The notes below the pieces were generated by a model. It saw nothing but the letters and a program-made list of their open reading frames with translations. It made no database searches and was not told the origin of the DNA. Shown here piece after piece: positions 6,583 through 64,000 of a stretch of DNA of 64,000 nucleotides. Source of the stretch: Eukaryota sp. GEM-RC1 (taxonomy: Eukaryota); contig JAUFOQ010000016.1 in NCBI GenBank assembly GCA_040285855.1, positions 1,302,001 to 1,366,000 of the forward strand, written 5' to 3'. Within the stretch, counting starts at the first letter, position 1. The number at the start of each line of letters is the position of its first letter. Position numbers and translations under genes: made by a program.

Positions 6583-8925
6583 TGTAGGAATATTCCATAA
6601 AAAACCATCAAACGCAGTGCATAAAAGATGAAAATCATTGAAAAATTGCAAACACGGTTAAAGTGCGAATGAAACAATGGAAAACTTACATGTAGGTTTT
6701 TGTCGAAACCAATTAATGTAAATTACTGAATGTGAATCTATTAAGTATACTTCAATTGAGTTCTTTCCTTCAAGTAGAACCACCATCTTTATTATAATTA
6801 ACAGATATTGGACGTGTTGTGTATCTCACAAAGCAAGAATTTTTCAAAACCCCTAAATTCAACCAACAAATACACACAGACAATGTACATTCCACACACA
6901 GAGCAATTGCCACAGGTCATCGTTCTCGAAGATTTACAATAGAAAAACCCAGTTTGTAGCACGCAGAAATGCACTTGTCATTTTCATCAGAAATGCCGCT
7001 CACGGATCCAATAGTGTTGTCTGTAATGGACATCCTTTGCGGGAGCCTTTGTATGTATGTTGGAATGACGTGTCAGTCATCGACGATGAGCTGTCTTCCA
7101 CTAGACGGAGCCGCATTGACTGGTGAGCTGGAGGTTCTCAGATCCTCATCTTGGTGGTATTGGTTTCACTTCGTCTAAATGGTGGACCAAATCTGCTTTC
7201 ATTGGTGGTGGTAAGAATTTTGTCTTTGAGTTCTGTAGACGGTACCCAAGTCAAGAAAATCTTCTTGTTTCGACAAGTAGTTGTTTCTTGGTAAATTTGA
7301 GATCAGAATTGTCACTAATTTCACCTGACCTCTGGCAAACTTGTTTTCCAGCAGATATTTGTGAAATTCCAGAACGATGTGTCACCTCGTTAAAATTTGC
7401 TCTTAAGAAACTCCAAAAACACCTTTTAAAACATTTTGAATGTCTGGATTTTAAAATTCGACTTGGCTCGGCCAAAGAAAAAAATCCAGCTTTCGCAAAT
7501 TTTTTAATCGATTTAAAGGACAGTTCTTCAGTTGCTTTGATTAACCAAATTCCTCAGATTTATGGTTTGTTGTTGAATGATCATCAATGGACTACAACAT
7601 TCAGACTTCGATGTTTCTTGTGGCCATCTAATTTACCCAATGATCTTCAATGCAAATGTGGTAAATTAGTTACTTTTTCTCACCTTTTGAGTTGCAATCG
7701 TTTCATTACTTATAGAACTTGTATTCATGATGCTGTTAGAGATCAAATTCATGCAATGTGTAAGTCCTACAAAATCGAATCTTTCGTTGAGCCACTGTTG
7801 AGATCACTGGAAATCAATAATTCAAAAAATAGTGATTCTGATAAGACTTTTGGTAAACGAAGAGCTGATGTTATAGTTCCATCAGTTAATGATGAACTAA
7901 CCGTTGTTGATGTGATTACTGTGGATGTTTGCAAAAAAAGTGCATTCAAGGATGCTAAAACTGAAGTTTCGCCACTGAATTCTTCAGAACAATACAAGAG
8001 AAACAAATATGATGAACCACTGACTGCTCTCAAACATATTAGACATGTTGAGTACAAATTATGTCCTTTTGCAATTTCAATTTATGGTCGACTTGGTAGA
8101 GATGCTCTTTGTTTTCTCTCTGATTTTGAGAAAGTGGTCAAAAAAGAATGAACAAGAAATTTGATTTCAAATTTTGGTTGAATCGTATTGTTTTTACAAT
8201 ATTTAAAACAATTCCTATCATGATTTCAAAAGCTCTATTAGCTCTCAGTGTTTTTTATGAAGAAAAAGCTGATGTGAGTTTTAATGGCAATGATTGTTGC
8301 TTTAATGATATTGAATTCTAGTATTTGTGTTTATTTTAATGTTTTTAATAAAGGGGTGAGCTGGAAAGCGTGTCGGTCAGTGTGATGATTGTGGGGTATG
8401 GACGAGGCCAGATTGATGGAGCAGTCATCACCCACAGCCCTGGACTAGAGGAAGATCGCAGTTCATTTTTTTTTTGAGGTGTCGTGCGTCAGGAAAGCGA
8501 CTGTGTTTGTCCATGTGGACCATTCTCTTTGTCTAGCACTGTTGTGTATCCTCTGTTATTTTTGTTGTTGTGTGGACTCGATCACCAGAAATAAGTGATA
8601 TAAGACATCTCTTTATGACTATTTCAATAAAAGATCTGTACAGAACACATGTTTGCAATATCAAAACATGAGTGTTAGGAAAGCTTACATGTAGACACTT
8701 GGAGAAGCCATAACACAATCTTCTTTATTCAATGATTGAAACCATCGTTTCTGAAACTCCTATCTCTAACAAGGAGGTTCAAGAGGCAATCTCATTGTTC
8801 TTGGACAATGAACAGAATGGACTTGATGAAAAGACTTATGTATCGATACTCTTTATAATAGTCTTGCTGAAAGTTATTGAGGAATTATGAGTTGGTCCTG
8901 TCTTATCTCTGTTTTTGGTCCACAT
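6583..8925. repeat. Dispersed ~1.1 kb repeat of unknown class, interrupted by the RLE insertion at 7133-8354
   Basis: 6583-7132 plus 8355-8925 align colinearly with the uninterrupted copy at about 55565-56750. Confidence 0.85.
7133..8354 (+). mobile_element. 5'-truncated RLE non-LTR retrotransposon with 10-11 bp target-site duplication
   Basis: CKCG..HLLSC, IHDAVRD, RADV..VDV, KRNKY, PFAISIYGRLG; GGTGAGCTGGA duplicated at 7122-7132 and 8355-8365; empty site at 56100-56110. Confidence 0.9.
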
Positions 8926-14259: not shown

Positions 14260-14462
14260 TGAATTCAGTGGAGAAACTTGATTTTTAGCATCCTTGAATG
14301 CACTTTTTTTGCAAACATCCACAGTAATCACATCAACTACCGTTAATTCATCATTGACTGAAGGAACTATAACATCAGCTCTTCTTTTACCACAAGTCTT
14401 ATCAGAATCACTATCTTTTGAATTATTGATTTCCAGTGATCTCAACAATGGCTCAACGAAAG
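14260..14462 (-). mobile_element. Short internal fragment of the RLE retrotransposon
   Basis: Encodes LRSLEINNSKDSDSDKTCGKRRADVIVPSVNDELTVVDV, nearly identical to part of the 7123-8151 ORF. Confidence 0.85.
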
Positions 14463-14679
14463 AAATTAATCAAGCAAAATTTGAATTTATGCAACCTTAT
14501 AAGTTGGCTCCCTTAATTCTATGCACAGACTTCCGAGGAGAACTACTTCCTTTACAATGCTGTCTACATCGCTTTGTAAGATTTGTTCATTGGAGACATC
14601 CTGTCTAAGTTGCAGTTTTCCAAGACAAAATGGTTTTTGATTTCCATCAACACGAATATAATACTGTACTAATTTTTTC

Positions 14680-15564
14680 TAGATGAGTCGCCTCGACTCA
14701 ACTGCACTTTTTACGAGTCGACTCGACTCAACTGATGTAGCGGAGTCGACTTAGTCGACTATTTGAGTCGATTGCACAGATCTCTTTCCCAAGTCGAGTC
14801 GAGTCGAGTCGACTTAAACAATGTCTGAGCCGAGTCGAGTCGACTCAAGTCATTTATTACGTTGCATCAAATTATCCCACATGTGGTTTATATATTATCT
14901 TCCATTAAAAAGTTCAAGATTGAATACTGAAACAACACCAATTGACTTTCGTCTTTGTGGTTAAAAAAATCAAGTGTAGTATACTAACAACGTTACTACA
15001 TGTAGTGCTCAAATGATTTTTGTTAAACCAGTTTCTTGTTTCTGCTCTTTGAGTGTTTACCTCCAACAAAGACCTGTAGAATTCAGCTCTTTCTCCAGAT
15101 GAGAAATCTACTCTCAATCAAGGCCTAGAACTGCTTAAACCGTTCTTCGCTGTCACTGAAGCTATTTCGGGAGAATCGTACCCCACCATGAGTTTTCTCG
15201 TTCTTTGAGTGACGAAAATATTAGAGCATCTGCATGTTTGCAGTCATGGAGCATCTTTCTTGGTGATGAATTTGCGTTATAGGCTACTTCAGTACTTATA
15301 GACTGTATACTAATAGCTTTTCTTGTTTCTTGTTATAAAAAAATCCTGCATTTTGCATTTATTTAGACGAATGAATTTCAATGATTGGGCTATTGTTACT
15401 GTCGCTACTCAATAGTCGACTCGAGTCGACTCAAAGCCGAGTCGAGTCGACTCAGATAAATAATTAGTCGAGTCGAGTCGACTACACGATTCGTAGAGCC
15501 GAGTCGAGTCGACTCAGATAAATTTCTAGTCGAGTTGAGTCGAGTCGAGTCGTGCACAGGTCTA
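14680..15564 (+). mobile_element. Non-autonomous hAT element, copy 1, with an inverted left end
   Basis: Right TIR TGCACAGGTCTA; AGTCG/CGACT subterminal arrays; transposase relic LLKPFFAVTEAISGESYPTMS; flanks AATTTTTTC and AATTTTTC; near-identical to 35458-36308. Confidence 0.88.
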
Positions 15565-20224: not shown

Positions 20225-20495
20225 GTAAGTGCAAATACTAGAACTCAATGTCAGCAGTGCAATATTCAGTGCCATTAAAACTCACATTTGCTGTTTCTTC
20301 ATAAAAATACTGAGAGCTAATAGAGCTTTTGAAATCATAATAGGAATTGTTTCAGATATTGTAAAGACAATTCCAGGCAACCAAAACTTAAAATCAAATT
20401 TCTTGTGCATTCTTTTTTTGTCAACTTTCTCAAAATCAGAGAGCAAACAAAAAGCATACTTACCAAGTCGATCATAAATTGAAATGGCAAAGGAC
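20225..20495 (-). mobile_element. Degenerate 3' fragment of the RLE retrotransposon
   Basis: FAISIYDRLGKYAFCLLSDFEKV..KKFDFKFWL matches the 8060-8330 region. Confidence 0.8.
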
Positions 20496-20994
20496 AATTT
20501 GATGGAAAATACAATACGGTTTTCCAATCAGACGTTCTAGAATTACGTTTCTTTCCTCAAACAAATTCTTTGAGAGCTCAAATGTCGTATTCAATATTTT
20601 TTGCAGTTTTCATACTGCGGAGGGAAGAGAGGAAATAATTCCTTTAGCAGTCTCCTTTAAGTTTGGAACATAGGTTTTTACACTGGGTTTGCAATCGCTG
20701 TTTTTACATTTTAGGGGATAATGATGATTCAAATATTAAATTTGTGTAAACCAAGGATGAGAAACTGAACTGAACTTCTCGAATTAACAGTCACAGAGGA
20801 CTTCAAAATCGAATAAGCAATTCTTGTATAGAAATGTTGATTCCATTTCGGCCAAGTTGTTTGGCGGTCACTTACTTTTCGTAACAGGTACAGTACTTCG
20901 TTTGATACGTCATTTTAGTAGTCCTTATTTATATTTACTAATATTTATTTAGTTTCTTGTTGTGTGTTTGTATCATACTTGGAAAATTCAGTCA

Positions 20995-22592: not shown

Positions 22593-23288
22593 ATGGATGC
22601 TGACAGTTTGCTTCTTCTTGCTGCAGAAAGAGATGATCTGACAGGTGCGGGACAGATTCTCTCAGCTGGTGGTAATATCAACTGTAGAGACTACAAGGAA
22701 AACACACCACTACACATTGCTGCAGCTCGATCAAACTGGAGAATGTGTAGATTTCTATTGGACTTCTCTCACTGCTACAAGAACCCAAGAAATGATACAG
22801 AAGACACACCATTGTCATTATCTGTGTTGAACAAACATCCTGAAACTGTAATGACTTTATTAGAATACAAATGTGATGTGAACACAAAAAACATTGATGG
22901 GGTCAGTCCTCTTCATATTGCTTGTCAAGTTAGGGATGAACAATCAGTGAGAATGCTTCTAAGCCATGGTGCTGATCCTTCCACTGTTGACAATGATGGA
23001 AATAGCCCACTTCACATGGTTTGCACAGATCCTATATCAGTTGAATTAGCTGAGATGTTGCTAATTGCTCACGCATCAGTTAATGCTAGTAACATTGAGG
23101 GGTTCACCCCATTGGAGTTAGCGGTACAAGAATCTGGTCACAATGTCAAGATCCTTGTTGATCTATTACTCTCAAAGGGGGCAATTGTAACTGAGGATGC
23201 TATTAGTAACGCTACAGATCACAATATCAAATCAATGTTGATCGAGATAGCGTGTTTAGAAGCAGGAAAACACAGTGAACTTGTGTAG
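22593..23288 (+). CDS. Ankyrin repeat protein
   Basis: TPLHIAA, TPLSLSV, SPLHIAC, SPLHMVC and TPLELAV repeats. Confidence 0.95.
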   Translation: MDADSLLLLAAERDDLTGAGQILSAGGNINCRDYKENTPLHIAAARSNWRMCRFLLDFSHCYKNPRNDTEDTPLSLSVLNKHPETVMTLLEYKCDVNTKNIDGVSPLHIACQVRDEQSVRMLLSHGADPSTVDNDGNSPLHMVCTDPISVELAEMLLIAHASVNASNIEGFTPLELAVQESGHNVKILVDLLLSKGAIVTEDAISNATDHNIKSMLIEIACLEAGKHSELV

Positions 23289-23303: not shown

Positions 23304-23460
23304 ACTGTGAATTTCATTCCAAATGCATAAGGGCATAACCCTTCACATTTTCATGATCTCATGAGCAAGCTCGTAAGCAAACTCATGAGCAAAACTCACA
23401 GTTTGAACAAATAAATGTCCTCATTCGCAAAGTCTTTTAAGACGAGCTAACTTCATAGAT
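23304..23460 (-). ncRNA. Candidate Fanzor omega-RNA scaffold (guide predicted to continue from 23303 downward)
   Basis: Directly 3' of the Fanzor stop; two blocks identical to 63618-63734; identity stops at ...GAAATTCACAGT; 12-bp closing helix with the internal ACTGTGAGTTTT; nested AAGGG/CCCTT and GTCTT/AAGAC hairpins. Confidence 0.72.
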
Positions 23461-26343
23461 TCAAGATTCCTGATCTTTCTGGTTTACGTGTGAGTCCTTG
23501 GGTACATCTTTCTTAGGCTTATTTGGACAAGTTGTTTTGTTATGTCCAGGTTGAGAACATATACGACACTTGTTAGGACCTCTGACTTTTGTTAGAGGAC
23601 GCTTTGCTTTACCCTTACCCTTACTCACAGTCTTTTTCTTTGGAATCTGATCTGTATTCCCGCCATCCACGACAGGTGTTGTTTGAGATTTTGGTCTCTC
23701 GAGGATGGCAGGTCTACCTTGACCTTGAATGGTTCCATTTACAATATTGTAAATATTGATAGCAGAGTTGAAGTCTCTATTCCAGAGGACATGACATTTA
23801 GCACATTCAACTAAGCCCCATGGTGAGACTTTGTTGTTCTTCAATCTTTCTTTCGAAAATGTCAACTGGTCAGTCCATTCATCATCAAAGTTACGCTGCA
23901 CAATATTGTCTAATTGATTGTGTTCCATAATTTCCTTTTTTAATTCTTTCTCTTCCTTCTGTAACTTCTTCTTCCAATGAGGATCAGTGACTTTTATCCT
24001 TTCAGGATTGGAACAGATACCTTCGTCGTTTCTGGAAACACATGCAGAGCAACATTTGCTGGTCTTAAATTCATCAACTAGGAACACTTTAAATCCAAAT
24101 TTTCTTAATAATTTCCGAATTGAAGCACCTTTTACAGTAGATGCTTTACCTCTTCTTCGACGAAAAGCAGTGTCGTTCCAGTCTCCATACCCAACAACGA
24201 CTTCATCTGGGTTTCCAAACTGGAGAGCAAATCTGTGAAGCATGTTTTTCTCACTTCGTTCCTTTCTTGAATACTGTGTGAGACGATTCCTTCTAAACCA
24301 CTTTTCTTCGTAAATTCCTTCAGTATTTCTTTGATCAGTAGTGGGTGATCGTAGTAAAGAACAGGTAATTTCTTTACCAAGAACAAAAGCAGAATACAGA
24401 GTCAAATCACAAGATTTACTACCTGGCGAGTTAGAGCCCCATTGATCTAAAATTTGTTGCCCATTTATGTCAATGCGTCTGCCATCTGGAATGTGAATAA
24501 ATTGGGTAGAGTATTGTTGTAACCGTTCAGATTCAGATAAACGGTGGAGATTATATCGTCTTATTTTCTTCTCCAGCTTCCTCTTCTTTCTCTTAGCTCT
24601 TTTTCTTTCCTTCCTTGTTTTTTTCTTTTCCATGGAGACTTTTTAATATCGGCATTGCGCTCCCCAGCAGTGTATCTGAATACTTTCCAATCGTCACGAT
24701 TTTTCAACTTGACAGTTGATGGTTTGTCAATAGTGGGTGCGTCTTTCCAATCCTTCAATTCCTTTTTCAATTTTTTCAAGCTTCCTTTTTTCTTTGATGA
24801 TTTTGGAGAAATCTTTCTTCTTCTGAGATTGGCTGATGTATCGAAACCTTCGATTTTCTTTTCCTCCTCAGATTTTAAAGAAGCACAATACATCAAATCA
24901 TGCTGATTAGGGTCAATAACAACAATTCTTTTGGATTTCAAATTTAAGTTTTGAATTTCTGTGGAACTCAAAGAATCAATGTACCTTTCAGTAGCTGTGT
25001 AGTCAACTGCTTTCACCTTCTTATGAGGATTTCCTCTCCCATCAAGCAGATCTTTCCGCATCATCATTAAACTACAGCTAACTCCATCTGTAGAAATAGA
25101 ACTGTATTTGAAGTCATGAGACAATGACTTTGGAAGACACTTTGGTTTCAAAACTGAGTGCCAAATATCTTTTCGAACGTCATCAAAGCTACCTTTCATT
25201 TCTGATGCATAAACTTCTTTAAACCATGTAGTATCCAATCTGATATGATTAGGAATCAGTGATTTTGTTAGAGGAAAAGGATTATTGGCAGTAACACCAG
25301 GACAAGAGTCCTCAACAAGACGTTTCAAATACACTGCATGACTTAAGAATTTCAAAGGATCTACTTTTTCAGCATAATAGATTGTTTTCTCCATTTTACC
25401 TTCAAAAAAAGTAAACAAATAGTTAAAAAATAGTAAACTCAGTCTAGAATTGGGATCAGGAAACACTTCAACATCTTGAAAATTAATTTTTGAAATTTCC
25501 CCATTAATGATCAACTGTCTGACTTCATTAAGCTTTGTACACAACTCTTGTCGTAGATTCTTATCAGTAAGCTTGTTAAGTCTATCTTTTTCAGGGTAAC
25601 CAAATTAAATACTTGAAAAACATATTCATGAAAGTGATCACTCATGTTAGTCTTGTAATTCGTTATAATTTCAGTAGCCATGTAATGCAATATACGAGAT
25701 AAACGATGACTACTGGGAAACACAATCCTATCAAGTCCAACAGATCGAGCAGCTATTTCTAAACGAGGAATATAATACATCAAGAAGTGTTGAGCAAACT
25801 GATTTTGAGTTGAGCCATCATTTGTGTTAGAAATTATGTTTTCTAAAGATTCTTGCACAGTCTCAATATGATTCTGATTGTTTACAAGTTTGTTGTCCCT
25901 AATCGTCATCATAGACAACACTTGTTCCATTGATTTCAACGTAAAAAAATTCTTCCAGTCTGGCAATTCAATTTTGGCAGTTTGAATTTTAGTCCAAAGG
26001 TCAGGTTCAGGTTTAGGTTCATCACTCGCATCTTCAATATTTTCTAATTTAATAGGAGGAGTAGCAGCATGGATAGACTCTGAATGTACATCTGTTTCTT
26101 CATCAGTTGACTCATCTGTATCAGAATTCATTTCTTCCTTAACAGTTACATTTGGAACAGTAGCAGGCAGTAACTTCTGAATGTAACCTATAATACCTGA
26201 ATGGTGAAAATTATGAACAAAAAATGTTTCAAAAAGAGAGTACTACGGACTCTTACTTGGTGAGCTCTCTTAACACGAGATTCAATAAATTTAACCTTCG
26301 CTTTGGACACAACATTGTCTAGTCGTTTCTTAACCACTTTCAT
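23461..26343 (-). CDS. Fanzor1 (eukaryotic TnpB-like RNA-guided endonuclease) moiety, about 960 aa, with C-terminal CCHC knuckle; split by three homopolymer frameshifts
   Basis: ISTDGVSCS; RuvC-I VVIDPN (D 24912-24914); VGYGDW then LVDEFKTSKCCSAC (E 24070-24072); CAKC..WNRDFNSAINI (D 23773-23775); GRPAIL; N-terminal VKKRL..VKRAHQVRVRSTLFLK and YKTNMSDHF; CRICSQPGHNKTTC. Confidence 0.9.
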
Positions 26344-27300
26344 TGGTGACTTTGAACGTAATGTTTGTTTTTTGGGATCCAATAGGTCAGCCAACAAGTA
26401 CTCAATCAGAGGTAATTGTTGAATTGAGTTCATCAACAATAGCGGTCTTGTCGATTCCTTGGCCCAAAGTTCATTTACTTTCTCCAAATTTCTTACAAAT
26501 TTCTTTTTAATCTTATCGACCTTCACTTTGGGATTGTCTGGAACTAAAACATTAATACTGTCAATTATGCCATGCAAGTTTTGGACATTATTGACCAATT
26601 GAACTTCATCAGGATCAGAGTCATGATTAAGTTCTTCCAAGCGTTTGACAGTTTCATTTTTAGAAAAATTATTCATTTCAAGAAAAATTTGAACAACATT
26701 TTCCAAAAAACGGCCACCAGTAAAGACATAAAAATTCTTCAGTACAGCATTCAAATCGAGACTAAAAAACGGACCAAAAGTTGTTTCCTTACACCATTTG
26801 TTGAACCAAAAGGGAATGTAGGGTTTAAATTCTGGAAAAGTAAACGTTGTATTGATTTTGAGGACTTGACAACGTGATACAAGAAAGGGAAATGTATCTA
26901 AGTGAAAGTCATAACTCACAAACAATCGTGGACAATGTTGAGTAATGAAGGAAATGAAGTTTTTAAGCATACTGGATTCACTATCTGAAATATGTAAGGT
27001 ACACAAATCCAAGTTTGTAGTATCAAAGTTGCCATGAGAAAATAAATGTTTTTCATTAAACTCATTGTGATCAATGATCTCGATGAAAATTGATACAATA
27101 GGATCAACAGAAGAATCACGTTTAACTTCTAATTGATCTTCAGCTTCACCTTCAACAGTTTCAATGTCATCATCATCTTCTTGAACAAGTTGAACATTTC
27201 TGCCATTAATTCTTTCTTTTTGGCAAAATCACTTTGAACATGAATTAAACAAAAAGTTGGTAGATTGTTCCAAAGTAGAGGGGATTTAAGAAAGTCTTGA
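26344..27300 (-). CDS. Degenerate family-B DNA polymerase 3'-5' exonuclease-like domain, in frame with the Fanzor N-terminus
   Basis: DPIVSI, SESSMLKNFISFITQHCPRLFVSYDFHLDTFPFLVSRCQVLKI, SLDL, FLENVVQIFL; the same ORF (26188-27012) runs into the Fanzor N-terminal motif. Confidence 0.6.
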
Positions 27301-27337: not shown

Positions 27338-28369
27338 TTACTTCCATTTTTGGATTTCTTCTTGAATTGGCGATGGATACGACATAATGGAGGCCTTAAT
27401 TTTGGGTGGTAGTTCAGATGGTGGTACTTCAGATGATTCCAATGTGGACATACGGCGGTGAGTCTTTCGTATTGGAGTGTCACCAGTTGAAACAAGGGAG
27501 CTGGTAGTTCTAAATTTATTTCGTTGAATTAAAGGTGAACCTCGTGGTGATGGAATATCAGAAATTTTGGCCTTTCTTTTTTTAGTGCTTAAACCAGTAG
27601 ATGCTTTAGTGCTAGCAAGACGCTTACCTGAGATTGGTGACGCAGAAACACGCGACAACTCAACAGGACTAAAAGTTTCAAAATGTTCCAAAATTTTACT
27701 TCGAGACTCGTGAACAGCAATAGTGGTATTACCCAGCAGTTCTTTAACATCAGTCCACCTTATGACCACAGATTGATCTAAATTCATTAAAAGTTCAATG
27801 TATTCGAGAACACAAAAACCAGAGTCAGTTAGAGTATGTTTGATATTTGATGGAATAAATTCTATATTTCTGGTTTCACACATTGACAACACTGAATAAA
27901 TTTTTGACACAATTGTAAATAAATTGGAGGAAGATGGTGCAACTGGCGTTTGGTTAACAGGAAATTCTCTGGCATAATCATCCTCAACGTAGGTCGGATC
28001 AATGAATAAAATATGACTTGTAGGAGATGAAATGATCAGAACAATTAAACCCCAATGACGACCATCAGCAGTAAGATCACACATTGCACTATTGACAGGA
28101 ACAAGTAGCATTTGTTGGTTGTTTTGACCACATTGGAAGAATTTCTGCGTCAAAAAATCTGAAAATGGATATTTATTATAGGGTTGGTCACCATATAATA
28201 ACGGATATAAATCAGTTGGCCTAATTACATAGTCATAAAAGATTAAACCTGTTGATTCCACAAGTATTTTGGAATATTTGATGAACAATTGATCGTCAAC
28301 ATAAGTAAACAATTTCTGAATCTGTTTACGGAGATCTGCAGCATTAAGTTCATTGTTAACTTCACACAA
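27338..28369 (-). CDS. Second Ulp1/C48-like domain (catalytic Cys replaced by Ser) plus basic, Ser/Pro-rich linker
   Basis: YVDDQLF, LLVPVN..GRHWGLIVL, FIDP, HTLTDSGFCVLEY. Confidence 0.72.
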   Translation of the reverse strand: MCEVNNELNAADLRKQIQKLFTYVDDQLFIKYSKILVESTGLIFYDYVIRPTDLYPLLYGDQPYNKYPFSDFLTQKFFQCGQNNQQMLLVPVNSAMCDLTADGRHWGLIVLIISSPTSHILFIDPTYVEDDYAREFPVNQTPVAPSSSNLFTIVSKIYSVLSMCETRNIEFIPSNIKHTLTDSGFCVLEYIELLMNLDQSVVIRWTDVKELLGNTTIAVHESRSKILEHFETFSPVELSRVSASPISGKRLASTKASTGLSTKKRKAKISDIPSPRGSPLIQRNKFRTTSSLVSTGDTPIRKTHRRMSTLESSEVPPSELPPKIKASIMSYPSPIQEEIQKWK

Positions 28370-28375
28370 CCTTTT

Positions 28376-29332
28376 TCAAAAAAAATCAGTCGATAGATTA
28401 GACAAACTTTCATGTGTTGTAAGAATTTGTAAGTACTTTTGAACATATGCAATGACATAAATTCCACAATCACTTGGAGTCTGAGATTTCGGGACGTTTG
28501 CATAACGTATCGTGAAACTTGGCATTTTTTCTCTGAATTTATCAACAATGTGGTTCAAAAAGTTGGAGTTCAGTATTGGATCAATAACTGTTGCAACATT
28601 TTGTACACAATCCAATAGAATAACACCCCAATGAGATCCTGAAAATGTGCGTGACGCAGACAGGGCAGTCATACCGTCATTGATAGGAGCAATGAGGAAT
28701 CGAGTACCGGTGGTTTTAGCAATAAGAATTTGACGATCTACAGTTTGTTTATGTTCAGGTGAAAGATCAGTAATTAATCCATTCATCACACTAGAGGGGA
28801 TACTGTATAGATCAAATGCTAGTCTAGCAGAGTTAAAAAGGTACTGACAATATTGAAAGATAGCATCGTCATCTATCCATTGGCCAGGATTCAGATACTC
28901 TAGGGAGTCTTTGGACAACGGTCCGGGATTGGATTCCACGTCACCATTTATGGTTAAGTCTTTTTGAAACGGAGGATGAGAAGAGATTAATAAGCAAGCG
29001 AAGGGACTAAAGCACGAGCAGCAACCACAACTTCCTACAGCATTACCTTTTCTAATGAGGATGCGTTCGGAAGAAGCAGCGAAGGGACTAAAGCACGAGC
29101 AGCAACCACAACTTCCTACAGCATTACCTTTTCTAATGAGGATGCGTTCGGAAGAAGCAGCGAAGGGACTAAAGCACGAGCAGCAACCACAACTTCCTAC
29201 AGCATTACCTTTTCTAATGAGGATGCGTTCGGAAGAAGCAGCGAAGGGACTAAAGCACGAGCAGCAACCACAACTTCCTACAGCATTACCTTTTCTAATG
29301 AGGATGCGTTCGGAGAGAGATGATTTTGTCAT
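28376..29332 (-). CDS. Polyprotein N-terminus: four Cys-rich 27-aa repeats, 2A-like motif, Ulp1/SENP8-like C48 protease
   Basis: DLTINGDVESNPGP; LNPGQWIDDDAIFQY, APIND..GSHWGVILLD, VIDP, SQTPSDCGIYV (His-Asp-Cys with oxyanion Gln). Confidence 0.82.
   Translation of the reverse strand: MTKSSLSERILIRKGNAVGSCGCCSCFSPFAASSERILIRKGNAVGSCGCCSCFSPFAASSERILIRKGNAVGSCGCCSCFSPFAASSERILIRKGNAVGSCGCCSCFSPFACLLISSHPPFQKDLTINGDVESNPGPLSKDSLEYLNPGQWIDDDAIFQYCQYLFNSARLAFDLYSIPSSVMNGLITDLSPEHKQTVDRQILIAKTTGTRFLIAPINDGMTALSASRTFSGSHWGVILLDCVQNVATVIDPILNSNFLNHIVDKFREKMPSFTIRYANVPKSQTPSDCGIYVIAYVQKYLQILTTHESLSNLSTDFF
28998..29314. repeat. Perfect 81-bp tandem repeat, about 3.9 copies
   Basis: Units start at 28998, 29079, 29160 and 29241. 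Confidence 0.97.
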
Positions 29333-29951
29333 GGGAAGAAAAAGACTAATTCACTGATTCACTGTAATCTGCAATGTAAGAACATCATACACTGAAAAAG
29401 ATATCCTAAAAGTTATAGTTCATCTGATTATTAACAGAAGAGCGTACGTCCATCAGTGAGATTGTCAAGACTAGGGGAATACTTTATACCTACATATTGT
29501 TAATCGATACTCGCACATCCATCATCATCCATTTTCAGCTTTATGTTAAGCGTACACATAAACCAATACTGTTGTATATTCACTAGCTACAATAAATTAT
29601 TTATTGGACTGAATCAGAATTTCTGAAACAGGCATGTAATTCTTATGTAACTCTACATCAGTCGAACAAAATGACTACAATCTTTCTCTTTCGGACGACA
29701 GTGATTTGTCCTTTGATACGTACGCTAGTGTTGCAATTATTAAACATATATCTCTATACAAAAAAATGAATCTCATGAAGAGATAGCGTGTGTATTCTGT
29801 TTGTTGGTGTTTTCTATAGTATATTGTAATAGTATAAGCTGTTCGATATGATAATTCATTACGTCTTTATTCAGACTAACGCAAAGAGAAGTTATAAACA
29901 TAGTTTTAAAATACAAAGCTACTTCCAGTAACTACATAACTGTAACATCAA

Positions 29952-32900
29952 TCAATCCATTAACTGTTTGATTTCATCAGGAACACAAATTTCCTTGGCA
30001 TAATACTGAATGTATTTTGTGAACAAATTTTTAATGTGAAAACCGTCGTCTTCAGATGTCCAAAGAATTTTCAATACATCAACTTTTACATGAAACGTAC
30101 ATAGTTGATTCACATTCGAGGGAATGTCATATATGATACAAACAAGACGCTTGTCAACAACGGATTGACTTTTGTTCAACAAATTATATGCGACCTGTGT
30201 TACTGCTACAAGAACTGCTTTCTTCGGATTTACCAAAAATTTTTCGAAAATATTGGACTTCTTCTTACCGTCGATTTTTTGTACAAAGTGAGTATACATC
30301 GAGTGGAAGCCTTCTTGACAATGATGCTACGAGTCCTCTGCCAGTTTCCACGTTTTTAACAGTGATAATGATTTTTTCTTCTGTTAACAAATGGCTGTGC
30401 AATAAGTGTTGCAAGTTGTTCAGTTTTGAGTCAGATACAATCAACTGTGATTTTTCCAAACATGAGGGAATTGATGGCGGTACAGTTGATGGCGGTACAG
30501 TTGATGATGGAGATAAAACTTCGTCAGATTCTTCTCCATGTGAACCAATTAAATCTCCATATTCGTCCTCTGAGTCATCATCAGGAATGACAACAAAATT
30601 TTGAGTTGTAACCTTTTTTACAATTGGTTGTTCAACTTCTTTAATAGATAATTGTTGTTGTTCAACTTCTTTAATAGATAATTGTTGTTCTGTTGCAACT
30701 CTTTTGACACTGTTTGTTTCACCTTTTTCATCTGTTTTTGATCGTCGCTTCAATCTTTCAGGTATTTCAGGTGGTGGTAATCTAAAGAACTCTTTAACTG
30801 GTGGTTTGTGATACTTAGGGGATACACATTTCTTTGACGAAAGGGAAGGTTGTCCATCAGGTTCTGCCCAACGAAGAGTCACAATTTTGCCAACATTGGT
30901 TACACAATAGATTTCTGGATTGACACTTGATGGAAAAATTTTAATGAAATTATTAAAAGGCGGTGGATCTGCAAGGGTAAAGCGCTCATCAACGTACAAT
31001 TCTGTGGTTACTGCATTGACAATACCAATATGTAACTGGGCTGAAACAAATATGATATAATTGGGATACCCAAATAAGCCACAAGCATCAATAATGTCAT
31101 GTTCAGTATTTACAATGTGTTCCACACTGACATTACTTTCGGAAATATGTACAATATATAAGGAATTATTAGCTATAACAATCCGTTGATTGCTAAAATT
31201 GGGATCTGGTCCAAATTTTGTGGAATGTAAGCCATCAAAGCAGTTAGATAAATCAATGAAATCGGTTGAATTTTTGGCATAACAAATTGATTTTTCTGTC
31301 AGCACCAGATGCATATATGATTTGGAAAATCTGATATATGTTGAATCAATGACATTTTCATTGTTTGGAAGATCAATCTTGTGAACATATTTACAATTTT
31401 CCTTTACAGCAGGCACACATACCAGAACACCATTTGTTTGACTGATATACACGTTTTTACCCACAACGATTATAGAACTATGTTCATTGATTGACTTCGG
31501 TTCTGTTTCCTTTAGCAAGTCAATATATGTTTCAGAATCAAAAGAGAAGAACTGAAGTCAAACAAACCGATAAGAACTTTGTTTTCTATAGGCAAAAACA
31601 CCCACATAGCAGTTGGGTAACCTGGAACATCGTTTTGAACCGCCATCGACAAGTAAGTATAATCAGGAAGCTTTAATGGATTCCAAAAACCTTGATCACC
31701 AACTGTCCATAACATTAACTCTCCTGCAAGAGTCAGAATAATGATGTACTGCCCAGATTCAGTGATAACTGCATTTTTGATTTCAGATGCACATGATTGT
31801 GTGTAACTATCTGAGAAATTCATTGTATTAATCTGTTCCGAAGTAATGGGCAACATGTCAGTGGTAACAAGGGGACATGGCGGCTGTTCACATGAGTAGA
31901 GGTATGTGGACTCTGGATCATATTCCAAAACTGACGTCTCAATTTCAAATTCTTTTCAGACTCAGAGAACAACGATTTTCCTGCGGCAGAGAATGTAGAT
32001 AGATATTTATACAGTACATCCAAGACTTGAAACTTTCCACAATTTGGACATTCAGTATTGACACAGCATTTGAAATTACTGTCGGCAGCAGAGTAATTCA
32101 ACAGAAAAGGCTGGCGTCCACCAACATCAATGGGATTCAGATCAGTAACTAAATCACGTTGGACATTAACGTCGATATCGTTTTCTTGAATCAAATTAAT
32201 TTGATGATAGAATATTGATGAATCAATTTTTAATCTTTCAGAGAGATATAAAACAATTCTACATCGATTGAGACAACCAATGACTTCTCTCAATTGTGAT
32301 AAAACATGGGGATCGTATACATATTCCATTTGATCTTCATTGTTGTAAATAAGAACCTGAGTTGATTGGATATATCCAAATGTGATATTAGAAAACATCA
32401 GTTGAATAAACAAATTCAATAATGAAGGTTAAAACTGAAGTTTCGCCACTGAATTCTTCAGAACAATACAAGAGAAACAAATATGATGAACCACTGACTG
32501 CTCTCAAACATATTAGACATGTTGAGTACAAATTATGTCCTTTTGCAATTTCAATTTATGGTCGACTTGGTAGAGATGCTCTTTGTTTTCTCTCTGATTT
32601 TGAGAAAGTGGTCAAAAAAAAGAATGAACAAGAAATTTGATTTCAAATTTTGGTTGAATCGTATTGTTTTTACAATATTTAAAACAATTCCTATCATGAT
32701 TTCAAAAGCTCTATTAGCTCTCAGTGTTTTTTATGAAGAAAAAGCTGATGTGAGTTTTAATGGCAATGATTGTTGCTTTAATGATATTGAATTCTAGTAT
32801 TTGTGTTTATTTTAATGTTTTTAATAAAGGGTATAATGAAGGTTGAAAGAAGCAGCACATAGAAGGAAATTGTTTTTGTGAAGACACGTAAACGCCAGAA

Positions 32901-33982
32901 TAATTGTGACAACTGGTTGCAGGCAAACGAGGAAAAAGAGAATTGTCAAACTTAAAATCAATGAATTTTACAGTGCCATTTAGAGCGTCACATTTAAAAG
33001 GTAGTTGATAGTAGACATTTTCAATATTCGGTTCCAATTGAACTTCAAAGTTGTCTTCAAAAGGGATAAGTATGCGTCTGTTTAACAATCGAGCAATTTT
33101 TGTGCTTGTGTCACGAACTACAGTATTGTTGTCATTCACAGATTGGAACTTTTCACCTGAGAAAGTCACATTACATTCCACACCACATATCAATGGAAAA
33201 AAGAATTTGTGATATCTTGAGGCAGACACATTTTCAAACATTTTGGCAAAAATAAGAGGAGTAATAGTTTCATTTGAATTTTTAAGGGTTAACATCAACT
33301 TATCTGGTTCTTTGGGTAACAACTGTAAATTAACGCTATTCTGTCCTGCAGATTGTAATATCTCATTCAAATCATTGACTTCATCTTTCAATAGTCCACA
33401 TTCAGATTTACAATGAACAGGCACTTCAGTTGTAGAACTTGTAATTGATAAATGTCTTTGACTTCGCAATACTATTGTATTGGTTGGATATGATGATACA
33501 AACAATAGAGTCAACTTTTTTGGTTCTGTGAGATCACAAAGTTCTTGCAAAAACATATGATCCATAACAGAAGACAACTTTTGTGTGAATTCGTCAGTTG
33601 GATTGGACTTGTAGAGACTAAGCAAACCCTTAACACGGTCTGCGTGTGCAATTAACTTTTGAAAAATTATGCTCAAAGATTCCATATTAGGGTCAGATTT
33701 TAACACGTCAAAATGATTCTTCATCCTTCGCAAAACACGTATTTTCGTGACAAGTGTATCACAAAACAGTTTTAGTGACTTAATATTAAAATATTTGAGA
33801 ATACGAACATTGATTGTACCAGACAATAATCGAAACAAGAAATTCAACATAATGATCAAATCTGAATGTTCATGATTAGTCTTATCAACATACAATTTCA
33901 AAAATTTACCGAACTTTGTAACCTGATTGACATTGTCTGTGTAAAACTTAAAATTGAACAACTTGACATCAAAAGCACACAA
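29952..33982 (-). pseudogene. Large orphan gene (about 1200 aa reconstructed) interrupted by a retrotransposon fragment
   Basis: Removing 32431-32832 and one TSD copy fuses ...FQPSL to LNLFIQ... in frame; remaining breaks lie at A4/A4/T6 runs; CCVNTECPNC motif and a beta-rich region. Confidence 0.7.
32431..32832 (+). mobile_element. 402-bp 5'-truncated RLE retrotransposon copy with 12-bp TSD
   Basis: Essentially identical to 7957-8355; ATAATGAAGGTT duplicated at 32419-32430 and 32833-32844. Confidence 0.93.
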
Positions 33983-34030
33983 CAGGATAATTCCTGGAAC
34001 TGATTGTTTTAGAAGAAAGCAATTAACTCA

Positions 34031-37000
34031 ATGGCACCAACCACTATACACAACATCAATCTCACAGATGACCAACGTGAGATCTTTAACGCAATCACTA
34101 CCAGCAGACACAACTTCTTTGTCACTGGTGGTGCAGGATCAGGAAAATCTTATCTTTTGCATGCTCTCAAATACTGGTGGAGTAACGTCGGATCTCGTCT
34201 CATGCGTGCTAATGGTGAAATCTTCTTCACTGCAACAACTGGGGTTGCCTCAACTGTTTTTGGTGGACAGACCATACACTCACTGTTTGGTTATAAGTTT
34301 ATGAAAGAAGAAGAATCCATACATGATGTTATTAAATGTATGCCATCAAATGTCAAATTATTGTTAAAAAAAATTACAGCAAGAAATACAATGTTAATCA
34401 TTGATGAAATTTCAATGTTGTCCTCCAAATTGTTTCAACGGGCGAGTGACATTTTGAGTGAGCTTATGTACACTCCAAAATGTCACTCCCCGAAGAAACC
34501 ATTTGGAGGAATTCAGATAATTTGTTTTGGGGACTTTCTTCAATTAGCCCCTGTTGTGAAAAGTCTTGATGGAAAAGGAAATCGAAAAGTGGTAATTTCT
34601 GATTTCGCTTTTTCATCAAGTGCTTGGAACAGTTTAAATTTTAAATATTGTGAACTGGCTGGTAGTATTCGACAGCAATCAGATTCCCAATTTTTTAATT
34701 TTCTAAATCAATTGAGATTGGGTCTGTTAGATAATTTTATGAAATCAATTCTGCGTACTCATTTCGAAACAGCAGAATCTGTTGAAAACCCAACAATTTT
34801 ATACGGAAAGAATACTGATGTTGCTAGAGAAAATTTTAAACAATTCAAACTTCTGGCCAAAATTCAGATTCAATTGAATTTGTAGCTGTTGACAAATTCA
34901 ATGAATCTGAATTAAAATCTCAAATCAGAAAAAGAAGTTCTAGATTTCCAGTCAATGAATCTAATTTGGAAAAATATTATGACATTGAAACTTCTGTGCT
35001 GACAAGTCGCTTGGATGACTTTGCTGAAAAAAAACTAGAATGCGTTGTGGGTGGACAAGTGATGTACACTCAACATAAGCCTGAACTTGGACTAGTTAAT
35101 GGTTCAAAAGGAGTTATTGTTAATTTTTCAGATTCATATATTGATGTTCGGTTCAACGCTGAAGCAGAACCGAAAAGAATCAGTCAGTCAAGGTTTGCTA
35201 TCGAACACTTGAACGAAATCGGAAGACCTGTTCAAGTGGCGAAAAGAATTCAGTTTCCGCTAAGACCTTGCTGGGCGATAACAGTGCATCGATCCCAAGG
35301 TTTAACAATTGACGGGATTGAAGTTGCTATCCAGTTTTGGGAATATGCCCAACTTTATGTGACCTTAAGTAGGGTTAGGTCTTGGAGGAGTTTAAAGATT
35401 TTAAGTATTGGAAGAAGTTATCCGGTACCAAATTTGGAATTGTACCAATGGTATTATTAGACCTGTGCAATCGACTCAAATAGTCGACTAAGTCGACTCC
35501 GCTACATCAGTTGAGTCGAGTCGACTCGTAAAAAGTGCAGTTGAGTCGAGTCGACTCATCTCTTTCCCAAGTCGAGTCGAGTCGACTTAAACAATGTCTG
35601 AGCCGAGTCGAGTCGACTCAAGTCATTTATTACGTTGCATCAAATTATCCCACATGTGGTTTATATATATTATCTTCCATTAAATAGTTCAAGATTGAAT
35701 ACTGAAACAACACCAATTGACTTTCGTCTTTGTGGTGAAAAAAATCAAGTGTAGTATACTAACAACGTTACTACATGTAGTGCTCAAATGATTTCTGTTA
35801 AACCAGTTTCTTGTTTCTGCTCTTTGAGTGTTTACCTCCAACAAAGACCTGTAGAATTCAGCTCTTTCTCCAGATGAGAAATCTACTCTCAATCAAGGCC
35901 TAGAACTGCTTAAACCGTTCTTCGCTGTCACTGAAGCTATTTCGGGAGAATCGTACCCCACCATGAGTTTTCTCGTTCTTTGAGTGACGAAAATATTAGA
36001 GCATCTGCATGTTTGCAGTCATGGAGCATCTTTCTTGGTGATGAATTTGCGTTATAGGCTACTTCAGTACTTATAGACTGTATACTAATAGCTTTTCTTG
36101 TTTCTTGTTATAAAAAAATCCTCCATTTTGCATTTATTTAGACGAATGAATTTCATTGATTGGGCTATTGTTACTGTCGCTACTCAATAGTCGACTCGAG
36201 TCGACTCAAAGCCGAGTCGAGTCGACTACACGATTCGTAGAGCCGAGTCGAGTCGACTCAGATAAATTTCTAGTCGAGTTGAGTCGAGTCGAGTCGTGCA
36301 CAGGTCTAGGTATTATTCAACTTTTCATCCTGTTAAACCATCCACTATTGATTTGTATGTTTTGGGAAATCAACATTGTCTTCAACGAGATTTCAATCAT
36401 TTTAATTCATTGTTTGCAAACTTTTGTGCAGAATCGAGTGAACCAATTATGGATGATGTTGTTGTTCCTGAAATTGTTCATGGTGTTGATGAAATTGTTG
36501 ATGAAGTTATTGTTGATAATGTTGAGGAACAAATTATTGAAAATAATGATAATCAAATTATTGACTTGGAAAAAATCATTTAAACCATTTCGAAAAATCA
36601 AATTTATTTGAAACAGAAGCACTACTATCAGGATCCGATTCTGGTGATGAATCTGATAGTGATACAATTTCAACAAGTTTAGATGATTTTGTTGTAAATG
36701 ATGAACTTGAAGAAGATGAAACTAATATTCCTCCCAAATTTATTAATTGTGACTCAATTTTTAACAAAAATTCCCCAGAGATTGGTGTCAATAAGTCTAA
36801 ACTTCCTCAGTTACCACGAGGCAACATTACTCTACCATCGCTTCCCCGTTTGAAGAAAACCCCTTTACCAACGAAGAATTTATTATTAAAAAAGAATGTC
36901 AGTGCTGGTATAGAAAGAAAAAGTTCCCAAGTATTTCCTCTTATTGATGATGAAAAGCGATTTTGTCTCAAGGAAGTTCAAACTGAAAGCTTTGAAAATG

Positions 37001-37491
37001 AAAAATGTGATTCCATATGTGAATATCAACAAACTGACAATATGCCTTATGAAACAATATCATTATCTCCTATTTTGGAGTATAATCGTGTTGCTACTTC
37101 AAAACAATTGAGAGTGGACTTAACTATTGGAATTCAGTCAATTGTCGATAATGTACTAGATTGTATTGGATCTGAATATGCATCAAGTATGGAAGTGAAA
37201 ACAATAAGAAACTGTTACATTACCGATGTGATTAATAGGGATAATGTTGATGAACGTTATTGTAGTGATGTGCTTGTGGAATTGTTTCATGTTTTGAAAG
37301 AGTATTTGAAAAATGATGAAAAGATTGGGATGTGTGTTTTATTTGAATTATATTTAATTTTGAAAAGATTGGAAAATATAGGTAATTTTGATAGTTTCAT
37401 TTTGTGTTACACATCTTGTAAAACACATCTTGTAAAACACATCTTGTATTACAAATCTTGTATTACAGATCTTGTGTTACACATCTTGTAA
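34031..37491 (+). CDS. Pif1-family (SF1B) helicase with long acidic C-terminal extension; interrupted by a hAT element and frameshifts
   Basis: TGGAGSGKS, TATTGVA..GGQTIHS, IIDEISM, FGDFLQLAPV, RQQSD, GLVNGS, QFPLRPCWAITVHRSQGLT, QLYVTLSRV; frame continues WYY-STFHPVK once 35458-36316 is removed. Confidence 0.9.
35458..36308 (+). mobile_element. Non-autonomous hAT element, copy 2, intact ends
   Basis: TIRs TAGACCTGTGCA / TGCACAGGTCTA; 8-bp TSD GGTATTAT (35450-35457, 36309-36316); transposase relic LKPFFAVTEAISGESYPTMS. Confidence 0.93.
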
Positions 37492-37585
37492 AACACATCT
37501 TGTATTACACATCTTGTGTTACAGATCTTGTGTTTCAAATGTTGTATTACAGATCTTGTAAAACACATTTTGTGTTACAGAAAGC
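37400..37585. repeat. 14-bp minisatellite (ACATCTTGTAAAAC / ACATCTTGTATTAC variants)
   Basis: About 12 degenerate tandem units overlapping the end of the Pif1 gene. Confidence 0.9.
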
Positions 37586-37767
37586 ACTTGTAGTTTTGTA
37601 AATTCTAATATAAAATAGTCAACAATTCAAAAGATCGAAGGTGTTCTTTTCAGTCAACTCTAGACATTAATAGTGAATATCTTTCTTGGCTGGGTTAACA
37701 CATTGATTAGTGAAGACAGATAAGAGTCATGTCTAGGTCAACAATTCATTACACATACGACACTTTC

Positions 37768-37995
37768 ATTACAAATGTTGTAGTTACAAATGTTGTAGTT
37801 ACAAATGTTGTATCACCAAATGTTGTATCACCAAATGTTGTAGTTACAAATGTGGTATCACCAAATGTGGTATCACCAAATGTTGTAGTTACAAATGTGG
37901 TATCACCAAATGTTGTAGTTACAAATGTTGTATCACCAAATGTTGTAGTTACAAATGTTGTATCACCAAATGTTGTCATTACAAATGTTGTACAT
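37768..37995. repeat. 15-bp minisatellite (ACAAATGTTGTAGTT / CCAAATGTTGTATCA variants)
   Basis: About 15 tandem units of two alternating variants. Confidence 0.95.
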
Positions 37996-62481: not shown

Positions 62482-63617
62482 TACGGGGGTGTTGCCTGGG
62501 TGAAAAGTAATCACAATTGTACATCATTCAGCTTCAAGTCATTTTGGTTCAGAACCGGTTATTACGGTTCCCAAAACTGGCGGTTCAGGTTGCTGAAAAC
62601 AATGAATGAATGAATGAGCATTGATTTGTTTTAATCTATTGTCCTCCACATTTTACATGAGTGATTATAAACCATCGACATGCTACATTCACTGACATTG
62701 TAGATGACAAATGTTGTGGATACTTTCCATTTCTATGTTTGTCGGTTGAAGACGAAACAGACTATATAGTTTTGGAAATAGTACTGTAGTGCACTCAAAT
62801 CCAATAGTAAATCAATTGTTTTAACTGTTCTCAAACACTTAAAACAATTGACTGAAGAATGCAATTTCTTCTTAGAACACTACATTTCATTTCTAACTTG
62901 ATGTAGCCCGGTTGCGAAGATATAAGTGTTTAGGTACCGAAAATAGTATCATTCCTACCACAGAGAACTGCGAAAACAATTGAAAAGTACTAAGACTAAA
63001 TCCAAACGACTTCATCCATATCCGAGAAGGGCCTACGTTTTTGGACTTTAAATTCAAAAATTGTAAAGTTTATCAACTAAACCCGAAAAATGGAAAACAA
63101 TTTACTGTGTTTCCATTCACTCATTCTAAACTTACGCTACTGTTCTTTACATTGTTCTTCAAATGCTTGAACAACTATTCACCTGCAGTACTTATCGACC
63201 CGAAATAAGAAACAGAAAAAGGTTGAAACACAAATTTGTAGTGTGTAGTTCGTTAAATTATGACATATATTCATCTTCATTAAACAAATTTAGAATATCA
63301 ATTCCGATGTAGTTCTTCAACTTTGGAGTCATTCTTGGAATAAGAACTGAACTGTATTAGCACTTGTCTGCCAAGCAGCAGTCGTTTCCCATCTGGTTGT
63401 TTCGAATTTAGTTTATGAACAGTTTTGGTTTCTGTACATGACTCTTGGCTATCTTGTTGTTTTGGATTGTGTGTATTTCTGAGTCTGCTACCGCCCAGAC
63501 TGATACTGATCGATTTGTTCACACAGTGAACTATTTTAATCTGTAATATTCACAAAGGAAATGATTCCGCATCTCATCATACAATGATTTTAGAAGTCAA
63601 TTTTATTGTTATTTACC

Positions 63618-64000
63618 ACTGTGAATTTCATTCCAAATGCATAAGGGCATAACCCTTCACATTTTCATGAGATAACCCACAGTTGACAAAGTCCTCATTC
63701 GCAAAGTCTTTTAAGACGAGCTAACTTCATAGATTCAAGATTCCTGATCTTTCTGGTTTACGTGTGAGTCCTTGGGTACATCTTTCTTAGGCTTATTTGG
63801 ACAAGTTGCTCTGTTATGCCCAGGTTGAAAACATATACCACACTTGTTAGGACCTCTGACTTTTGTTAGAGGACGCTTTGCTTTACCCTTACCCTTACTC
63901 ACAGTCTTTTTCTTTTGGAATCTGATCTGTATTCCCGCCATCCACGACAGGTGTTGTTTGAGATTTTGGTCTCTCGAGGATGGCAGGTCTACCTTGACCT
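63618..64000 (-). mobile_element. Second copy of the Fanzor element 3' end (C-terminus plus candidate omega-RNA), running off the window
   Basis: Near-identical to about 23304-23725; different flank beyond 63618. Confidence 0.93.

Follow-up and report, generated by a model that had tools for sequence, protein, structure and literature searches.

The window, by which we mean the whole 64,000-nt stretch of Eukaryota sp. GEM-RC1 DNA analysed here, is gene-dense, repeat-rich eukaryotic sequence. In this anaerobic protist, the reverse strand of the window carries a multi-copy mobile element, whose first ORF joins a repetitive leader, a 2A-like (StopGo) peptide and a C48 (Ulp1/SENP8-like) protease. 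Downstream of the 2A, on the same strand, this protease is followed by a degenerate C48-like domain, a low-complexity linker, a PolB-exonuclease-like domain and a Fanzor1 nuclease (Table 1).

Architecture of the locus

Table 1. Features at and around the 2A–protease–Fanzor1 element, in window coordinates
Feature	Position	Strand	Basis or remark
PIF1 helicase, one frameshift	34013-35457	+	4.7 kb upstream of element, opposite strand
Candidate 12-bp target-site duplication	29780..29791	.	Partner 23244-23255
Start codon of the leader–2A–protease ORF	29330..29332	-	Sole in-frame ATG from 29960 down that reaches the motif stop-free
Leader, four tandem 81-nt repeats, 27-aa Cys-rich unit	28992..29314	-	TRF 4.0 copies, 99%
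Hexamer DLTING, variant of the DLTxDG StopGo class	28943..28960	-	Codons 125-130; comparison with relatives
2A/StopGo core DVESNPG/P, predicted skip G137/P138	28919..28942	-	Codons 131-138
C48 (Ulp1/SENP8-like) protease 1, His234, Asp251, Cys289	28379..28921	-	Pfam PF02902
In-frame TGA inside a T8-G-A5 homopolymer pair	28376..28378	-	ORF reading; compared with other copies
Degenerate second C48-like domain; retains His-Trp-Gly and Asp, has Ser for Cys	27700..28300	-	Motifs read in P0001
PolB 3'-5' exonuclease-like domain	26839..27120	-	Pfam PF03104 E 5.4e-6; 1.1e-7 in P0071
Fanzor1 nuclease, split over four frames	23461..26360	-	Pfam PF07282
OmegaRNA-like terminal stem	23304..23402	-	Fold z -2.36; copy 2 z -1.62
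Second element copy, 3' end, cut by the window edge	63618..64000	-	97.8% over 314 nt plus 53 identical nt

The ORF starts at position 29332 and reads as four copies of the 27-residue unit followed by CLLISSHPPFQK-DLTING-DVESNPG/P, the translation of 28919-28990 (-) being LISSHPPFQKDLTINGDVESNPGP. Counted from this ATG, D131 lies at 28942-28940, G137 at 28924-28922 and P138 at 28921-28919 (-). A preliminary description, made from the DNA letters alone, had reported an exact D-V-E-x-N-P-G-P at codons 131-138, and translation bears this out: a six-frame scan of the window returned a single D[VI]ExNPGP and a single NPGP, both of them DVESNPGP, where 2.9e-5 matches to D[VI]ExNPGP would be expected by chance. 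The motif lies, as also proposed, at the boundary between the repeat leader and the Ulp1 fold, with four 81-nt repeats upstream and a Peptidase_C48 domain (Pfam E 3.9e-5) downstream; the 2A identity and the 137-aa leader length likewise agree with the core motif and the ATG. In the window copy, the acidic position of the hexamer is occupied by Asn (DLTING), and two prolines stand immediately upstream. Judged by its sequence, the peptide at codons 125-138 is a real 2A/StopGo motif.

Every 81-nt unit of the leader contains an out-of-frame two-codon mini-ORF, ATG-CTG-TAG. A ribozyme or other structured RNA in the repeats was ruled out by the absence of an Rfam match at threshold and by ordinary fold scores (z +0.8 to +1.8). 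Leader composition correlates at 0.88 with host proteins and at 0.82 with off-frame reads, translated non-coding DNA having been considered.

Protease 1 combines a His-Asp-Cys triad with a C48 profile, its PDB matches being NopD, Ulp2 and SENP7. The nearest sequences from outside Skoliomonas look SENP8-like, and the BLASTP match to the SENP8-like protein P0053 (E 2e-11) starts at residue 2; the conserved Gln sits one residue nearer the Cys than in cellular relatives (alignment A1). Pro138 marks the start of the Ulp1/SENP8-like fold, at its first helix, and cellular SENP8-like proteins start where the 2A ends (alignment A1, BLASTP), so a product beginning at Pro138 would contain the fold from the first helix onward. 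The second C48-like domain has a weak self-match (E 6e-7) and no Pfam match, and is missing from some copies (P0070, P0071). The PolB-exonuclease-like domain is probably inactive, the ExoI Asp being absent by eye; a model of this region reached a pLDDT of 40 with no fold match at E<=0.001, and the weak rows were mostly B-family polymerases.

In the nuclease, the RuvC residues are kept (D 24912-24914, E 24070-24072 and D 23773-23775, all on the reverse strand), the Glu lies next to a C4 zinc finger, and a CCHC knuckle stands at the C-terminus. The window protein matches SpuFz1 (E 3.3e-7) and PpFz1 (E 5.2e-5), and its paralogue P0066 matches SpuFz1 at E 2.9e-10; by triad, zinc finger and similarity, the nuclease is a Fanzor1. 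Beyond it, the terminal stem closes at the last base common to both window copies (2/2), with variable flank following. In Fanzor systems an omegaRNA scaffold is followed by a flank-derived guide (PMC10432273, PMC13565253), and this long closing stem is what would be expected of an omegaRNA-like scaffold with a guide from the flank. An additional internal hairpin of ~33 nt (23345-23390) is present in the stem of copy 1 and missing from that of copy 2 (63660-63690), the closing stem being kept.

The preliminary description had taken the locus for a DNA element, which our searches do not bear out. There was no Pfam match to a transposase among 31 window ORFs, no reverse transcriptase (RT) in the element (Pfam) or in the paralogue proteins scanned, and no inverted match >10 nt between the right end and 29330-36000 that would indicate terminal inverted repeats; the class is therefore an assumption. 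The partner of the candidate target-site duplication (TSD) falls within the final part of an ankyrin ORF, 48 nt past the stem; a 12-base match, here noticed post hoc, is reached by 1.25% of 2,000 random window pairs. Another 12-mer recurs in the otherwise unrelated 3' flanks of both Fanzor copies (23270-23281 and 63521-63532, 22 and 85 nt past the stem). It is absent elsewhere in the window, is equalled by 0.1% of random pairs (again post hoc) and matches the final 10 bases of the element itself at 8 of 10 positions. This 12-mer may represent a sub-terminal repeat or else a true end, enclosing a variable guide region.

The PIF1 gene is divergent from the genes upstream of the element. As to Helitron traits, no Rep (HUH) domain was found, and the common 3' end reads CACAGT where the Helitron CTRR was looked for. 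A non-autonomous, hAT-like element at 35458-36308 is inserted in the C-terminus of the PIF1 gene and has a second copy at about 14681-15564; its ends are terminal inverted repeats, its internal repeats are rich in GAGTC, and its target duplication is 8 bp long. Neither Pfam nor Atlas returned a match for the upstream coding region at 29952-34027 (-), which includes ORFs 32810-34027 and 30268-31557. At 37398-37992, two adjoining arrays of 14-nt and 15-nt repeats follow an ORF.

Fragments at 7120-8355, 32430-32831, 20232-20501 and 14261-14463 are what we take to be 3' pieces of a REL-endonuclease non-LTR retrotransposon. Of these, the 402-bp copy at 32430 shares 99.5% identity with 7956-8355, carries an 11-12-bp target duplication and splits an ORF. 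With such fragments in the window, mobilisation through RNA is conceivable, and repeat 5' monomers, an N-terminal StopGo and an Ulp1 protease are all features known from non-LTR retroelements. That the locus is a transposase-free Fanzor element moving through RNA and copied by the genome's REL-type machinery, with the 12-bp duplication as its flanks and 48 nt of 3' flank carried along, is nevertheless a doubtful proposition.

Conservation of the 2A peptide and exchange of modules

We took in 63 Skoliomonas-labelled proteins, 33 of which include the first helix of the protease (29 from GEM-RC1 and 4 from TZLM3-RCL, hence two species); 32 of the 33 have >=14 residues upstream. The representative search query included the 2A, which favours 2A-bearing matches; cluster members were not chosen by 2A. 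The strict motif D[VI]ExNPGP occurs in 29 of the 32 relatives, and the remaining three carry near-matches with degenerate cores (DTESNPGP, DVESNLCP and DVEAIPGP). The motif is thus conserved across copies rather than absent from related elements, and the 2A reading stands. The DLTxDG hexamer precedes the core in 29/33, with Asn at the acidic position in the window row alone. Across the five pairs that diverge most among those compared, identity is 50-65% over the 20-aa 2A and 24-39% over the protease; in alignment A2, whose rows were picked for carrying the motif, the 2A holds 9 of the 10 invariant columns.

All close homologues come from Eukaryota sp. GEM-RC1 or TZLM3-RCL, which are treated as Skoliomonas, free-living metamonads (PMC11316075). 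In scans with alignment A2, matches confined to the 2A came from 10 of 539 candidate stretches in metagenomes and 27 of 197 in viruses, the post-2A domains being found in 0/37; a viral scan with the RuvC ORF confirmed 0/7 stretches. A single origin of the 2A–SENP module was unsupported: a tree of 27 rows, with second domains treated separately, requires 5 changes, of which starred branches force 3, and the TZLM3-RCL rows form a separate group. More distant SENP proteins of both Skoliomonas species (P0081, P0037, P0047, P0058, P0062, P0052) are mostly 2A-bearing, and some of them have two intact C48 domains. A profile of the Fanzor N-terminus found no match in distant 2A–SENP proteins (P0081, P0058 and 9 others), so the 2A–protease module appears tied to Fanzor only in the subfamilies near the window.

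Among leaders of >=25 residues we distinguish 11 families that show no relationship to one another; six of these contain tandem repeats 27-76 residues long. These leaders and the protease variants assort independently. P0001, P0028 and P0030 have the protease in common (92-99%) and unlike leaders (20-22%), whereas P0028, P0023 and P0071 have the leader in common (100% over the last 60 residues) and differing proteases (32-44%); two further leader families show the same independence, so that overall one protease (92-99%) goes with leaders at 20-25% identity and one leader (95-100%) with proteases at 29-44%. The crossovers map to the 2A stretch. Six other repeat-leader types contain 4-7 Met residues, and the window leader one. 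Independent swapping is to be expected of a 2A that frees the product from any dependence on the 5' module, as we infer.

A motif that is vestigial, having hitch-hiked from a virus or retroelement to persist as a recombination hub, or one that serves as a cut site of the C48 protease, is very improbable: the three degenerate cores and the crossovers within the 2A stretch would fit, but the 2A is better conserved than the adjoining enzyme across two species, the viral class is matched over 14 residues, and C48 proteases cleave after Gly-Gly, not at Pro-Gly/Pro.

Continuity of the protease–Fanzor1 reading frame

The preliminary description had the protease and Fanzor in one chain. Paralogues uphold this in a single frame as far as the first RuvC motif; the window copy itself is not one ORF, being interrupted by the TGA and by five frame changes near 27351, 27221, 26224, 25591 and 24610. 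Each of the five is one base short and lies at or beside an A5, T6 or A7 run. With the window's own P0018 and P0027 left out of the counts, paralogues read through the first four in 6/7, 4/6, 5/11 and 4/4 cases, in that order. P0071 is unbroken between its leader and the N-terminus of Fanzor, and P0024 and P0066 begin shortly after the exonuclease-like domain and continue beyond RuvC-I, so that overlapping paralogues join leader–2A–SENP, the PolB-exonuclease-like domain and most of Fanzor1 in one frame. The fifth break (about 24610) is spanned by no paralogue, and only the unrelated Fanzor1s P0025 and P0026 match both of its sides in one chain. Searches for longer proteins gave no single protein >1,098 aa and no full-length chain; the closed frame of the window copy would be 1,958 residues.

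Homopolymer errors are expected in the repeats of Nanopore R9.4 assemblies. The paralogues named here stem from an assembly of this kind, corrected by short reads (PMC11316075). Copy 2 of the element has an additional base in an A run, which indicates that some indels are not under-calls. On comparison of the copies, the TGA and the five one-base gaps are probably for the most part homopolymer assembly errors, and the protease is likely fused to Fanzor1 in one polyprotein. An intron over the TGA (33-nt and 66-nt GT-AG candidates seen by eye) is disfavoured, as either would remove a helix kept in paralogues; so is a programmed -1 frameshift near 26224, which would fall within the Fanzor N-terminal domain, where 5/11 other copies read through.

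Alternatively, the TGA could be real in the window's subfamily. The 2A and the stop would then release a stand-alone protease of 181 aa, and the second C48-like domain, the exonuclease-like domain and Fanzor would be made by read-through or splicing or not at all, the copy perhaps being decayed. This would explain why all four copies with the window's protease variant end at the site or <=5 residues away, none of the three others reading past it, and the break near 26224 is common to 5 other near-identical copies. Yet the stop is itself formed by a homopolymer pair, the differing end of P0067 at the site is what a frameshift would produce, copies bearing the other protease variant continue directly into the same downstream sequence, and the coding segments contain no further in-frame stop and keep all catalytic residues. 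We therefore consider a genuine stop unlikely.

Role of the 2A peptide and comparison with known systems

The reading we regard as probable is that StopGo frees the leader and gives a protease–exonuclease-like–Fanzor1 product with a fixed N-terminus. Since the 2A is kept between interchangeable leaders and the protease, the leader is likely shed during translation: the ribosome would release the variable leader (137 residues here) at G137 and resume at Pro138, so that the protease, likely fused to the exonuclease-like domain and Fanzor1, would always begin at the same residue. The 2A may thus serve as an insulator: whatever the 5' module or the number of repeats, the product would be the same provided that an in-frame ATG is present, and such insulation would permit free exchange of 5' ends. 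The predicted product would unite a ubiquitin-like-protein deconjugase with an omegaRNA-guided nuclease; more speculatively, the deconjugase could plausibly counter host control based on ubiquitin-like proteins while Fanzor cuts empty target sites.

An active 2A might instead mainly attenuate expression through stalling, drop-off or reduced protein, limiting the dose of a potentially host-harming protease–nuclease rather than cleanly separating its parts. Of the retrotransposon 2A-like peptides tested, 59-70% lowered protein abundance (PMC13405545), and in 5 of the 12 leaders examined hydrophobicity peaks in a stretch whose end lies 20-22 residues ahead of the Gly, which is partly an edge effect of the scan. 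Attenuation alone leaves unexplained why every variant has Pro138 where the protease fold begins; moreover, the class that reduces abundance is Leu-rich at -19 to -10, where the window peptide has one Leu. We hold this explanation to be improbable beside release of the leader.

The peptide resembles StopGo motif 4, the viral DLTxDG class, in its core D(V/I)ExNPGP, in G at p11, D at p12 and S at p15 and, in most family copies, in an upstream (R/K)DLTx[acidic]G; it differs in belonging to a cellular mobile element, in being without the upstream WV and, in the window copy, in the Asn at the acidic position (PMC12846837). One tested representative of that class was almost 100% active in reticulocyte lysate and lost activity when its characteristic residues were changed (PMC12846837). 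The motif by itself is not sufficient for skipping (PMC3708506): some activity was seen in 14/17 class A peptides (PMC12338488), 7.4% of retroelement-associated 2A contigs were highly active and 56% mid-range (bioRxiv 2026.09.24.754024), and of three similar peptides two with DG-DVESNPGP were classed as skipping and one with DLTVDG as non-skipping (PMC13405545 supplement file 3). Skoliomonas names and six family peptides are absent from the four supplement files of PMC13405545 consulted, and in the literature accessible to our searches we found no paper on 2A function in metamonad ribosomes. The family itself offers about ten native 2A peptides, among them one in which Asp is naturally replaced by Asn. 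It is also a natural test of the N-terminal role of 2A: >=11 unrelated leaders and several variants of the protease have been reshuffled while the peptide between them stayed fixed, as would be expected of a 2A that uncouples the N-terminus of the product from the start site.

The nuclease shares with the Fanzor1 proteins SpuFz1 (8gkh), PpFz1 (9cf0) and GtFz1 (9cer) the RuvC triad, the Glu near the zinc finger and a structured 3' non-coding end followed by variable flank (PMC10432273, PMC10530073, PMC10711439). Unlike typical Fanzors of about 600 aa, the chain has about 990 extra N-terminal residues, comprising leader, 2A, one or two C48 domains and the PolB-exonuclease-like domain, as well as a C-terminal CCHC knuckle, and no partner transposase was found; the family thus supplies an unusually large Fanzor1, likely fused to a ubiquitin-like-protein deconjugase. 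The accessible parts of PMC3627910, PMC10530073 and PMC10432273 mention no natural Fanzor–protease fusion. The MCi-2 Fanzor family of Mucor circinelloides, which is unclassified and has no TIRs and 11-12-bp TSDs, likewise has subfamilies with differing 5' regions and a common Fanzor 3' part; unlike here, neither 2A nor protease is reported in the accessible text, and the TSD of our element is one candidate (PMC3627910).

Our literature searches, with subscription papers mostly outside their scope, returned no report linking Fanzor with Ulp1 nor, among the matches listed, with 2A, and none of a 2A-like or NPGP motif in Helitrons or DNA transposons. Transposons that carry Ulp1, with the C48 protease as cargo, include MULEs, Helitrons and NeSL-type non-LTR elements; here, by contrast, the C48 protease stands after a 2A and before Fanzor1, not with a transposase or RT. 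To our knowledge, natural use of StopGo is thought to be nearly confined to RNA viruses and APE-type retrotransposons. Known parts are thus combined in a layout that we did not find described for Fanzor elements in the accessible parts of the literature searched, and a conserved 2A heading a protease–Fanzor1 polyprotein would extend StopGo to RNA-guided-nuclease elements and to metamonads. As in the APE-type non-LTR elements L1Tc, Ingi, CR1, L2, Rex1 and Crack, an N-terminal 2A precedes the first enzyme of a long ORF, and some APE-type ORF2p carry Josephin or OTU deubiquitinases (PMC3708506, PMC13405545). The present element differs from these retrotransposons in that no APE or RT was found, the C48 protease comes next and Fanzor1 last, and the leaders, 40-310 aa long in the family and often made of tandem repeats, are interchangeable.
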